DNA of 64,000 nucleotides from Escherichia coli O127:H6 str. E2348/69 (GTDB lineage Bacteria > Pseudomonadota > Gammaproteobacteria > Enterobacterales > Enterobacteriaceae), in NCBI RefSeq assembly GCF_000026545.1, contig NC_011601.1; one strand, given 5' to 3'. Position numbers and translations under genes: made by a program. The notes beneath the pieces are model-generated. The model saw only the letters and a list, made by a program, of their open reading frames with translations. It did no database searches and was not told where the DNA came from. Shown in pieces: positions 12,715-45,720 of this stretch (its first letter is position 1; every line of letters begins with the position of its first letter).

Positions 12715-12835
12715 GTGCGGCCTGAAAAACAGTGCTGTGCCCTTGTAACTCATCATAATAATTTACGGCGCAGCCAAGATTTCCCTGGTGTTGGCGCAGT
12801 ATTCGCGCACCCCGGTCTAGCCGGGGTCATTTTTT
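12715..12835 (+). ncRNA. arcZ: ArcZ (SraH/RyhA) Hfq-dependent small RNA
   Basis: 121 nt stretch beginning GTGCGGCCTGAAAAACAGTGCTGTGCCC and ending in the GC hairpin CCCCGGTCTAGCCGGGG plus T-run, which I recognise as ArcZ; convergent with arcB and overlapping its stop codon. Confidence 0.85.
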
Positions 12836-41644: not shown

Positions 41645-42574
41645 ATGGAACGACTAAAACGCATGTCGGTGTTTGCCAAAGTAGTTGAATTTGGCTCTTT
41701 TACCGCCGCCGCCAGACAGCTACAGATGAGCGTTTCGTCCATCAGTCAGACGGTGTCAAAACTGGAAGATGAGTTACAGGTAAAGCTGTTAAACCGTAGT
41801 ACACGCAGCATTGGCCTGACTGAAGCCGGCAGAATTTACTACCAGGGCTGCCGTCGGATGCTCCATGAAGTGCAGGATGTTCATGAGCAACTGTATGCCT
41901 TCAATAACACCCCCATCGGGACGCTGCGCATTGGCTGTTCTTCAACTATGGCACAAAATGTTCTCGCCGGGCTGACGGCAAAAATGCTGAAAGAATACCC
42001 AGGTTTGAGCGTCAATCTGGTTACCGGAATTCCTGCCCCCGACCTGATTGCCGACGGTCTGGATGTGGTGATCCGCGTCGGCGCGTTGCAAGATTCCAGC
42101 CTGTTTTCCCGCCGTCTGGGCGCGATGCCAATGGTGGTGTGCGCCGCAAAAAGCTATCTCACACAATACGGCATACCAGAAAAACCCGCCGATTTAAGTA
42201 GTCATTCATGGCTTGAATACAGCGTGCGACCCGACAATGAATTTGAACTGATCGCACCGGAAGGGATCTCGACTCGCCTGATCCCGCAAGGGAGATTTGT
42301 GACTAATGATCCGATGACGCTGGTGCGCTGGCTGACGGCGGGTGCCGGGATCGCCTACGTGCCGCTGATGTGGGTGATCAACGAGATCAATCGCGGGGAA
42401 CTGGAGATCCTGCTGCCACGTTACCAGTCAGACCCACGCCCGGTTTATGCGTTATATACCGAAAAAGATAAGCTGCCGCTGAAGGTACAAGTCGTGATCA
42501 ACTCGCTAACGGATTATTTTGTTGAGGTCGGTAAATTGTTTCAGGAGATGCACGGGCGCGGGAAAGAGAAGTAA
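41645..42574 (+). CDS. aaeR: AaeR, LysR-family activator of aaeXAB
   Basis: 309 aa, N-terminal HTH, divergent from aaeXAB. Confidence 0.95.
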   Translation: MERLKRMSVFAKVVEFGSFTAAARQLQMSVSSISQTVSKLEDELQVKLLNRSTRSIGLTEAGRIYYQGCRRMLHEVQDVHEQLYAFNNTPIGTLRIGCSSTMAQNVLAGLTAKMLKEYPGLSVNLVTGIPAPDLIADGLDVVIRVGALQDSSLFSRRLGAMPMVVCAAKSYLTQYGIPEKPADLSSHSWLEYSVRPDNEFELIAPEGISTRLIPQGRFVTNDPMTLVRWLTAGAGIAYVPLMWVINEINRGELEILLPRYQSDPRPVYALYTEKDKLPLKVQVVINSLTDYFVEVGKLFQEMHGRGKEK

Positions 42575-42629
42575 TTAATATTGTACTGTTACGTTGTACA
42601 AACCTGTGCCAACGGGTTTCCCTCACCCT

Positions 42630-42637
42630 AACCCCAG
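42630..42637. repeat. Left copy of 8-bp flanking direct repeat AACCCCAG (target-site duplication)
   Basis: Identical 8-mer immediately abuts both IS termini (42630-42637 and 44188-44195). Confidence 0.75.
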
Positions 42638-42656
42638 CTGTCTCTTATACACAAAT
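42638..42656 (+). repeat. IS left terminal inverted repeat
   Basis: CTGTCTCTTATACACAAAT; overlaps a perfect 10-bp stem ACAAATCCCC / GGGGATTTGT at 42651-42674. Confidence 0.85.
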
Positions 42657-42802
42657 CCCCACCCGGGGATTTGTGATGTCTGTCAGTCTGCTTTAGGGGG
42701 ACTCTTTCCATCCGGTAGTTTCCTTCCTCCCCGGCAGCGATTTTTTGAACTTTTTCCTCACCCGTTGATCTTCTCTTATATTTCATTTTCTTCGGGTCTG
42801 TT

Positions 42803-44176
42803 ATGGTACTTTCTGATTGTTATTCATGGGCTAACGAGCAGTTTGGACATGCCCGTCTCGGTGATCCGCGTCGTACACGACGCCTTGTGTCACTGGCCTC
42901 TTCTCTCGCTCAGCATGCAGGTCTTTCTATTGTGAAATCATCCCAGTCCACTGCTCAGGTTGAAGGTGCGTACCGCCTGATACGTAACCCGTCTGTGTCC
43001 CCGCAAGCCATTGCCGAAGCCGGATTTACCGCCACTGTAAGGGCATGTGAGGCTCATCCGCTGCTCCTCGCGCTGGAAGACACCACCACCATTAACTTCA
43101 GTCACAGTACGGCATCTGATGACCTGGGGAATACCACCACTAACCCGAAGACGCGCGGGCTGCTGGCTCACTCTGTCCTGATGTACGCCCCCGACAGCGC
43201 CCTGCCAGTCGGTCTTATCGAACAGCAGCGCTGGAGTCGTGCCACGGACACCTACGGTGTTAAGCACCAGCGAAAAGAACGTCCCTATGAAGAAAAAGAA
43301 AGTTACCGCTGGCAGCAGGCTTCGGAGCGCATGGCCGAACGGCTGGGGGAGATACAGAAACGGGTAATCACTGTCTGTGACCGGGAAGCGGATATCTGGC
43401 ATTACCTGCATTATAAAGTCAGCCACGGGCAGCGCTTCGTGGTGCGTGCAGCACAGAATCGCCGGCTGGAAGAAGCACCCGGCAAGCTCTTCGAACTGCC
43501 GGAAGTCCTGGCAACCGCGGGAAGCCACACGCTGAATGTGATGCAAAAAGGCGGGCGGGCAGCCCGCCAGGCCCGGATGTTCATCAGTTACAGCGAAGTC
43601 AGCATAAAAAATCCCGACAACAGCGGCCAGGCGCTCCCGCTCACGTATGTCTGTTGCCGGGAGCAGGCAGAGGACGGCGCCTGCTGGCATCTGCTGACGT
43701 CAGAAAAAGTGGCGAGTGCCGCCGATGCGCGACGTATCGTCAGCCATTACGAGCGACGCTGGCTGATAGAGGAATACCACAAGGCGTGGAAAAGTGGTGG
43801 TACATGTGTGGAATCGCTGCGAATGCAGACCCGGGATAACCTCGAGCGCATGGTGGTTATCAAGGCGTTTATCGCGGTGCGGGTGCTGGGCCTGCGGCAG
43901 GGCGGTATCAGTGAAGAAACACAAAATGACAGCTGTGAGAAAATACTGACGCCGACAGAGTGGAAACTGCTGTGGGTTAAGCTGGAAGGAAAACCGCTTC
44001 CGTCACAGATGCCGACACTGAAATGGGCCTGTCTGAAACTGGCGAAACTGGGGCGATGGCATGACAGCAAACGCACCGGTCGCCCCGGTTGGGTAGTCAT
44101 GTGGGATGGCTGGTTCAGACTTCAGGATATGGTTGAGGGTTACCTGGTGATGAAGTCTCTTGATCAGGAGATCTGA
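42803..44176 (+). CDS. IS50-group DDE transposase (Tn5 Tnp homologue)
   Basis: 457 aa; blocks shared with Tn5 Tnp: GDPRRTRRLV, EGAYRLIRNP, LALEDTT (D93), VCDREADIWHYL (D193), YERRWLIEEYHKAWK (Y316-R319-E323-K330 YREK signature), DSKRTGRPGW; stop codon lies inside the right IR. Confidence 0.92.
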   Translation: MVLSDCYSWANEQFGHARLGDPRRTRRLVSLASSLAQHAGLSIVKSSQSTAQVEGAYRLIRNPSVSPQAIAEAGFTATVRACEAHPLLLALEDTTTINFSHSTASDDLGNTTTNPKTRGLLAHSVLMYAPDSALPVGLIEQQRWSRATDTYGVKHQRKERPYEEKESYRWQQASERMAERLGEIQKRVITVCDREADIWHYLHYKVSHGQRFVVRAAQNRRLEEAPGKLFELPEVLATAGSHTLNVMQKGGRAARQARMFISYSEVSIKNPDNSGQALPLTYVCCREQAEDGACWHLLTSEKVASAADARRIVSHYERRWLIEEYHKAWKSGGTCVESLRMQTRDNLERMVVIKAFIAVRVLGLRQGGISEETQNDSCEKILTPTEWKLLWVKLEGKPLPSQMPTLKWACLKLAKLGRWHDSKRTGRPGWVVMWDGWFRLQDMVEGYLVMKSLDQEI

Positions 44177-44187
44177 TCAAGAGACAG
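44169..44187 (-). repeat. IS right terminal inverted repeat
   Basis: Plus strand AGATCTGATCAAGAGACAG = reverse complement of CTGTCTCTTGATCAGATCT. Confidence 0.85.
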
Positions 44188-44195
44188 AACCCCAG
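44188..44195. repeat. Right copy of 8-bp flanking direct repeat AACCCCAG
   Basis: Identical to 42630-42637. Confidence 0.75.
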
Positions 44196-44259
44196 AGGGG
44201 CGAGGGGACCGTTCGTACACGGAGAAGGATTAATTATCCTTCTGAAAATACTGAAATTA

Positions 44260-45720
<1,461 letters not shown>

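Follow-up and report, generated by a model that had tools for sequence, protein, structure and literature searches.

An ISEc13 copy between aaeR and tldD of Escherichia coli E2348/69 and a possible target-site rule for its branch of the IS50 subgroup

The window analyzed here, a stretch of 64,000 nucleotides from Escherichia coli O127:H6 str. E2348/69 (NC_011601.1), contains a 1550-bp insertion sequence between the stop codons of two convergent genes, aaeR (ORF 41645-42574, + strand) and tldD (ORF 44260-45705, - strand). The annotated order at the locus is aaeB-aaeA-aaeX-aaeR-ISEc13-tldD. The insertion interrupts no gene and splits a GC-rich palindrome of the host. Identical 8-mers, AACCCCAG, abut the two ends of the element (Table 1). 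We re-checked these boundaries, and all agree with a preliminary description that had been made from the sequence alone. The empty site in other strains reads CCCTCACCCT-AACCCCAG-AGGGGCGAGGGG. A chance origin of the element is excluded, because the same 1550 bp occur elsewhere at 100% identity and because deletion of the element together with one AACCCCAG restores the sequence of other strains. Rfam models identify nothing within the element.

Table 1. Features of the ISEc13 insertion and its flanks (positions within the window)
Feature	Position	Strand	Remark
Left arm of host GC-rich palindrome, CCCTCACCCT	42620-42629		Last 4 nt, CCCT (42626-42629), are the CYCY half of the target motif
Left copy of 8-bp target-site duplication, AACCCCAG	42630-42637		
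ISEc13, complete 1550-bp insertion sequence	42638-44187	+	100% full-length identity to annotated copies
Left terminal sequence CTGTCTCTTATACACAAAT, IS50 outside-end type	42638-42656	+	
Perfect hairpin, 11-bp stem, 4-nt loop	42650-42675	+	Overlaps left terminal sequence
Transposase gene, 457 aa, uninterrupted	42803-44176	+	Product identical to WP_000244358.1
Perfect 13-bp inverted repeat GTCTCTTGATCAG/CTGATCAAGAGAC, 5-nt loop	44155-44185	+	Covers stop codon and most of right terminal sequence
Right terminal sequence, reading inward CTGTCTCTTGATCAGATCT	44169-44187	-	Identical to IS50 inside end
Right copy of 8-bp target-site duplication, AACCCCAG	44188-44195		
Right arm of host palindrome, AGGGGCGAGGGG	44196-44207		First 4 nt, AGGG, are the RGRG half of the target motif

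The single ORF of the element encodes a transposase with the acidic residues Asp93, Asp193, and Glu323; Tyr316, Arg319, Glu323, and Lys330 are located within YERRWLIEEYHKAWK. Members of the IS4 family are defined by a D(60-110)D(100-150)E spacing, a Y(2)R(3)E(6)K motif, and a transposase produced from a single ORF (PMC2266710). The spacers of the present protein are 99 and 129 residues long, its YREK residues follow the family spacing, and the region aligns with the catalytic region of Tn5. The duplication, at 8 bp here and 7-11 bp over the 31 insertion events described below, corresponds to about one turn of the helix, as in the family. With the NCBIfam model transpos_IS4_3, the protein reaches 514 bits (cut-off, 160), and Pfam identifies Tnp_DNA_bind (PF14706), DDE_Tnp_1 (PF01609), and Dimer_Tnp_Tn5 (PF02281), which is the Tn5-type domain architecture. 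Residues 6-453 align to residues 9-469 of the Tn5 transposase structures (E = 6e-84), with 39% identity to the IS50-type/Tn5 enzyme. The preliminary description had proposed an uninterrupted 457-aa transposase carrying D93, D193, E323, and the YREK residues, in an IS50-group member distinct from Tn5. All of these residues are in place, and an end-to-end Tn5 homolog of 39% identity that RefSeq assigns to the ISEc13 family supports that proposal. A simple scan detects no sigma-70-like promoter upstream of the transposase gene, and there is no clear Shine-Dalgarno sequence at its ATG.

The termini point to the same subgroup. Both ends of the element begin CTGTCTCTT. IS50-subgroup ends start with 5'-NT and those of the other IS4 subgroups with 5'-NA (PMC2266710); the present ends start with 5'-CT. 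The last 19 bp of the right end, read inward as CTGTCTCTTGATCAGATCT, are identical to the inside end that adjoins aph(3')-IIa on actual Tn5-type plasmid copies, and complete IS50-type elements on plasmids terminate in the same 19 bp. On the left, CTGTCTCTTATACACAAAT and the outside end of a complete IS50-type copy, CTGACTCTTATACACAAAT, disagree only at position 4. Both assignments of the preliminary description, an IS50 inside end on the right and an outside/mosaic-end-like variant on the left, are thereby borne out on real sequences. Compared with the canonical outside end and the mosaic end, the left end matches at 17 of 19 positions in each case. The left end also includes TTATACACA (42645-42653), which matches the DnaA-box consensus. 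Two GATC sites lie within the right terminal sequence (44170 and 44175), with a third at 44162, and a further site is found 36 bp upstream of the transposase ATG. The transposase stop codon sits inside the right end. The DnaA-box match, the GATC sites, and this placement of the stop are traits that ISEc13 has kept in common with IS50.

Among 5426 complete E. coli genomes, there are copies that match the element from end to end at 100% identity. Their RefSeq label is "IS4-like element ISEc13 family transposase", and we take the name from this rule-based "ISEc13 family" label on identical copies. Isoforms in ISfinder conventionally share >95% DNA identity. ISEc13 is routinely listed among E. coli mobile elements in the literature. 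The object that was flagged as possibly new is therefore the already catalogued ISEc13, present as an ordinary copy in the known E2348/69 genome. Matches to the element are found at 30 places on the E2348/69 chromosome and two on plasmid pMAR2. Near-full copies occur in 873 of the 5426 genomes and at least a fragment in 2991, and a protein identical to the transposase is recorded in 1261 blocks of a public collection. Copies from many strains are separated by no more than 1-2 nt, if at all. The feature is almost certainly one of about 30 chromosomal ISEc13 copies in enteropathogenic E. coli (EPEC) O127:H6 E2348/69, and an autonomous IS4-family element of the IS50 subgroup.

Occupancy of the aaeR-tldD site is rare. 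An uninterrupted empty site is present in 5416 of the 5426 genomes, so the 8-mers represent a true target-site duplication, as had been supposed. K-12 and the type strain show a single 8-mer region, in agreement with the preliminary description, which supposed no element at this site in K-12. A 400-bp query across the aaeR/element junction has a full-length match in only four of the 5426 genomes, namely three independent E2348/69 assemblies (100% identity) and isolate 538, which is unrelated to E2348/69. Because the junction recurs in three independent assemblies, it is not an assembly artefact, a possibility that the preliminary description had allowed for. Isolate 538 is occupied identically, and its flanks are 0.55-1.16% diverged from those of E2348/69 and include a 6-bp indel, whereas the element differs by only 0.13%.

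The sequences around ISEc13 insertions follow a regular pattern, which we derived from 31 events that carry a duplication. For the first five rebuilt empty sites, the hits had been ranked by how similar their flanks were, which biases this subset; the remaining 26 were sampled regardless of flanks, through exact-protein look-ups and hits ranked on the element alone. The pattern held after this resampling. Counted from the duplication, positions -4 and -2 are C and positions +2 and +4 are G in all 31 events. A pyrimidine occupies -3, and a purine occupies +3 in 30 of the 31, giving the consensus 5'-CYCY / duplication / RGRG-3'. Of the duplications, 17 are 8 bp and 11 are 9 bp long, and lengths of 7, 10, and 11 bp occur once each; the motif stays attached to the borders at every length. 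The full motif occurs at only five sites with an 8-nt spacer and nine with a 9-nt spacer in 62 kb of the window; it is sufficiently rare that chance agreement is excluded. At aaeR-tldD, the sequence CCCT-AACCCCAG-AGGG fits the motif, which accounts for both the position of the insertion and its 8-bp duplication. The duplication noted in the preliminary description is thus real, but its length is no anomaly for an element that gives 8 bp and 9 bp at similar frequencies.

At many of its sites, ISEc13 occupies the tip of a terminator or of a BoxC-like, GC-rich repeat (...CCCTCACCCTAACCC...AGGGGCGAGGGGAC...). More than 5 bp away from the duplication, complementarity is close to the chance level of 25% (9, 5, and 13 of 23 at pairs 6-8). 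We therefore reject a requirement for a long hairpin and conclude that the common feature is a short symmetric motif. We also reject the idea that ISEc13 always faces the same way at its target hairpin, as the agp/yccJ hairpin is occupied both ways: it was hit in three strains, with a 9-bp duplication, an 8-bp duplication, and an insertion in the opposite orientation. The dppA/tRNA-Pro hairpin was hit in two strains, which carry 9-bp and 8-bp duplications, respectively. Together with aaeR-tldD in isolate 538, these are sites that ISEc13 has re-used independently. ISEc13 copies that lack a duplication still have half-motifs at the right distance, and they pair as flank-swapped partners, which indicates recombination between copies. 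In our view, the ISEc13 transposase more likely reads the two-fold symmetry of the duplex sequence than an extruded hairpin. No description of an ISEc13 target preference was found in the openly searchable literature, and the supplementary material of the IS4 family review is silent on ISEc13. The flank rule seen in 31 of 31 events may be undescribed.

Relatives of the element were collected with a scan for the left end followed by TCCCC, using one genome per species. The pattern fixed only the first four C residues of the left-end hairpin, leaving its 3' arm and apical pairs free. The scan returned 97 loci, from Vibrio, Photobacterium, Aeromonas, Shewanella, Alishewanella, Neiella, Budvicia, Aliagarivorans, Marinomonas, and Escherichia whittamii. 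Complete relatives are 1480-1505 bp long, and the transposase of a Vibrio owensii plasmid copy is 52% identical to that of ISEc13. These complete elements occupy the tips of GC-rich hairpins and have mostly duplicated 8-9 bp. An A-run lies just before the GC-rich stem in 62 of 90 distinct left flanks, compared with 5.8% at random positions, and the last two bases of the left flank are mostly GC. The stem sequences of the targets differ between relatives (GCCAG, AGGCC, and others) and are not CYCY. Because they vary from element to element, the relatives appear to select terminator hairpins as such. The A-run bias, which is seen from left flanks alone, possibly reflects an orientation bias or a preference for A-tract terminators.

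The left end of ISEc13 itself encodes a hairpin. Its arms, CACAAATCCCC (42650-42660) and GGGGATTTGTG (42665-42675), form a perfect stem across a 4-nt loop. The preliminary description correctly reported a perfect hairpin overlapping the terminal repeat, but the stem comprises 11 bp rather than 10. In the minimum-free-energy fold, the hairpin closes on itself and shows no pairing to the start region. Each of the 29 different left ends recovered by the scan folds into a hairpin of 7-13 bp at the same place, with 11-13 bp in all but three, and three apical pairs are changed on both sides in 8-11 of 22 sequences. In nearly all variants outside Escherichia, the stem runs directly into six to nine T residues followed by GAAC. 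The T-run is broken in the Escherichia lineage (GGGGATTTGTGATG), which also has about 75 extra bp before the shared ATTTTTTGAAC. Most likely, the ISEc13 hairpin is a degenerate form of an intrinsic terminator that is conserved in the relatives, and without the T-run it is probably weakened and may no longer terminate. No description of a left-end terminator in ISEc13 or its relatives was found in the openly searchable literature. The right end has its own perfect 13-bp hairpin (44155-44185), and similar GTCTCTTGA...TCAAGAGAC repeats are found in the relatives.

Several other readings of these observations were weighed. The exact IS50 inside end on the right, and a left end that agrees at 17 of 19 positions with the mosaic end, might suggest IS50/Tn5 itself, or a laboratory or library artefact resembling the Tn5 mosaic-end adaptor. 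We give this next to no credence. What lies between the ends is a 1550-bp element flanked by a target duplication, and the reading is refuted by a transposase only 39% identical to the IS50-type enzyme, by the presence of the element in three independent E2348/69 assemblies, and by the distribution of near-full copies over 873 genomes. It is extremely unlikely that the element is a decayed, immobile relic, even though no upstream promoter match was found, the element exists only as fragments in many E. coli genomes and plasmids, and a single variant copy is broken by an internal stop. The present copy retains its two ends, its 457-aa ORF is uninterrupted and encodes all catalytic residues, and its sequence is identical to that of other genomic copies. 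The roughly 30 copies and the independent re-use of sites with different duplication lengths point to recent activity. As judged from sequence comparison, the differences of 0-2 nt across many strains and the repeated, independent use of sites argue that ISEc13 is active, or was so very recently.

The flank pattern might instead reflect selection against gene disruption, with the element landing by chance and being kept where it is harmless. Most sampled copies are indeed intergenic, and persistence is expected at harmless sites. We nevertheless regard this as very unlikely, since all 31 events, one of which disrupts dgoD, show the four invariant flank bases, and since the flank bases are tied to the borders of duplications of 7-11 bp. 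Nor does a generic filter for intergenic hairpins provide an explanation when outer complementarity is near the 25% chance level, and the same sites have been hit independently with 8- and 9-bp duplications and in both orientations. A preference of the transposase for its target is the reading that we retain. For the left-end hairpin, the preliminary description had proposed a block to translation of read-in transcripts, by analogy with IS10 and IS50, both of which limit read-in expression through RNA structure. A stable hairpin with a perfect stem, located directly inside the element end, would suit such a role. However, it ends 128 nt before the ATG and leaves the start region untouched, with no pairing there in the predicted fold, and most of the 29 variants have a T-run directly after the hairpin, which is the signature of an intrinsic terminator. 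Translation block is therefore unlikely, and the T-run behind the same hairpin in the relatives favors a terminator of read-in transcription.

By homology with Tn5, the 457-aa DDE transposase would bind the two different 19-bp ends as a dimer, excise the element by cut-and-paste through hairpin intermediates, and join it to staggered target cuts, producing the duplication. Insertion is not random, but directed to sites with 5'-CYCY immediately left, and RGRG-3' immediately right, of the 7-11 bp to be duplicated; at aaeR-tldD, the GC-rich palindrome supplies this motif as CCCT-AACCCCAG-AGGG. The left-end hairpin is most likely the remnant of a terminator that shielded the transposase gene from outside transcription, which at this locus would come from aaeR. 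Taken together, we tentatively propose that ISEc13 and its relatives form a branch of the Tn5/IS50 group with an undescribed target rule. ISEc13 would cut inside 5'-CYCY / N7-11 / RGRG-3' and the marine relatives at the apex of terminator hairpins, the duplication length would follow the spacing of the half-sites, and the elements would carry a left-end terminator hairpin of their own. This proposal as a whole is possible, though we hold the odds to be somewhat against it.

If the target rule is confirmed and new, ISEc13 would provide a natural Tn5-family transposase with strong and simple site selectivity, and a system for studying how a Tn5-type transpososome reads its target. Hot spots of the element, such as terminators and GC-rich palindromic repeats, would become predictable. 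The aaeR-tldD copy by itself changes nothing. It lies harmlessly between two genes of a reference EPEC strain, and with four occurrences in 5426 genomes it is useful mainly as a strain marker.

Among known systems, the copies labelled ISEc13 family by RefSeq show no difference from the present one: their nucleotide sequence is 100% identical from end to end, and the encoded protein is likewise WP_000244358.1. IS50/Tn5 shares with it the domain order, the catalytic DDE/YREK residues, a stop codon within the right end, the 19-bp inside end with its GATC sites, and a left end that differs by one base. The proteins are only 39% identical, however, and Met56, the start of the IS50 inhibitor, is absent from the ISEc13 transposase, which has valine in that position and thus no inhibitor start. 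IS50 generates a fixed duplication of 9 bp, whereas that of ISEc13 varies between 7 and 11 bp and is mostly 8 or 9 bp. The target preference of Tn5 is a weak A-GNTYWRANC-T, in contrast to the strict CYCY/RGRG rule of ISEc13, which also differs in having a left-end hairpin that overlaps the terminal sequence.

The IS50-subgroup relatives from marine and other Gammaproteobacteria (Vibrio, Photobacterium, Shewanella, Alishewanella, Neiella, Budvicia, and Aliagarivorans) have a 19-bp left end identical to that of ISEc13, the same right terminus ...GATCAAGAGACAG, and the left-end hairpin at the same place. They are shorter, at 1480-1505 bp, and follow the hairpin with a T-run, whereas ISEc13 has none and carries about 75 additional bp before ATTTTTTGAAC. 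In target choice, there are parallels elsewhere in the IS4 family. IS231A and IS186 also use a two-fold symmetric G/C motif around staggered cuts, with duplications of variable length. Their motifs, GGG(N)5CCC and GGGG(N6-7)CCCC, begin with the G-run and lie partly inside the duplication, whereas in ISEc13 the C-run comes first and the motif lies outside the duplication; moreover, the elements belong to different IS4 subgroups.

Every one of the 31 ISEc13 insertion events examined, drawn from the window and from loci L004-L031, L033 and L134-L143, shows C at both -4 and -2 to the left of the target-site duplication and G at both +2 and +4 to its right, and the consensus of the sites is 5'-CYCY-N(7-11)-RGRG-3'. 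The duplication is 8 bp long in 17 events and 9 bp in 11, with single instances of 7, 10 and 11 bp. Identical hairpins have been targeted independently in different strains, with duplications of 8 bp versus 9 bp or with the element in reversed orientation. Furthermore, the unrelated isolate 538 (L002) harbors ISEc13 at exactly the same aaeR-tldD position as the window copy, and the flanks of these two copies have diverged far more than the elements themselves.

The aaeR-tldD junction carries a GC-rich palindrome that differs among strains in 6-bp units. Compared with the window, the palindrome of K-12 (L132) has 6 bp more, in its CCCT(C/A)A-type repeats; that of isolate 538 has 6 bp less. A motif site, CCCT-CACCCCAA-AGGG, is still present in the K-12 palindrome. 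Another match to the motif, CCCCGGTCTAGCCGGGG, lies in the 3' hairpin of ArcZ (~12810) and is empty in the window.

Features of the window and re-used hairpin sites
Feature	Location	Remark
ArcZ sRNA	12715-12822	Rfam RF00081, 120.8 bits
GC-rich palindrome	42615-42637	aaeR-tldD
Motif half-sites of window copy	42626-42629 and 44196-44199	Either side of duplicated 8-mers
Perfect 13-bp inverted repeat	44155-44185	Covers transposase stop codon and right terminal sequence
dppA/tRNA-Pro hairpin	L006 vs L134	Re-used site
agp/yccJ hairpin	L011 vs L138 vs L028	Re-used site

ISEc13 insertions are not restricted to intergenic sites, as a further E2348/69 copy (L139, NZ_CP059840.2 11212-13360) splits the galactonate dehydratase gene dgoD, which is annotated there as two partial pseudogenes. 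Some copies lack a duplication and have flanks that match crosswise, namely L015/L016 (CP148541.1), L101/L102 (Alishewanella jeotgali), L135 (pMAR2) and L140 (LT827011.1), indicating inversion or other recombination between two element copies. Only fragments of ISEc13-like sequence are found in ~2100 further complete E. coli genomes and many F-type plasmids; one such remnant, 97% identical, comprises residues 356-457. The remnants on Shigella virulence plasmids are ~60% identical.

Because the 13-bp inverted repeat takes in the right terminal sequence, the element contains the inside-end sequence twice, in opposite orientations. Similar repeats also occur in relatives.

The 19-bp left end of ISEc13 is identical in relatives from many marine and other Gammaproteobacteria (L032 and L034-L130). 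There it is followed by a hairpin (window 42650-42675 in ISEc13) and T-run, predicted from sequence to be an intrinsic terminator, and the apical pairs of the hairpin show compensatory changes. Of the 90 distinct left flanks compared among the marine relatives (L034-L130), 62 have an A-run immediately before a GC-rich stem, against a background of 5.8%, and the flanks usually end in GC. As left flanks alone were compared, the A-run could mean either that A-tract terminators are preferred or that insertion has an orientation bias. In ISEc13 the T-run has been lost, and ~75 bp have been added relative to these elements.
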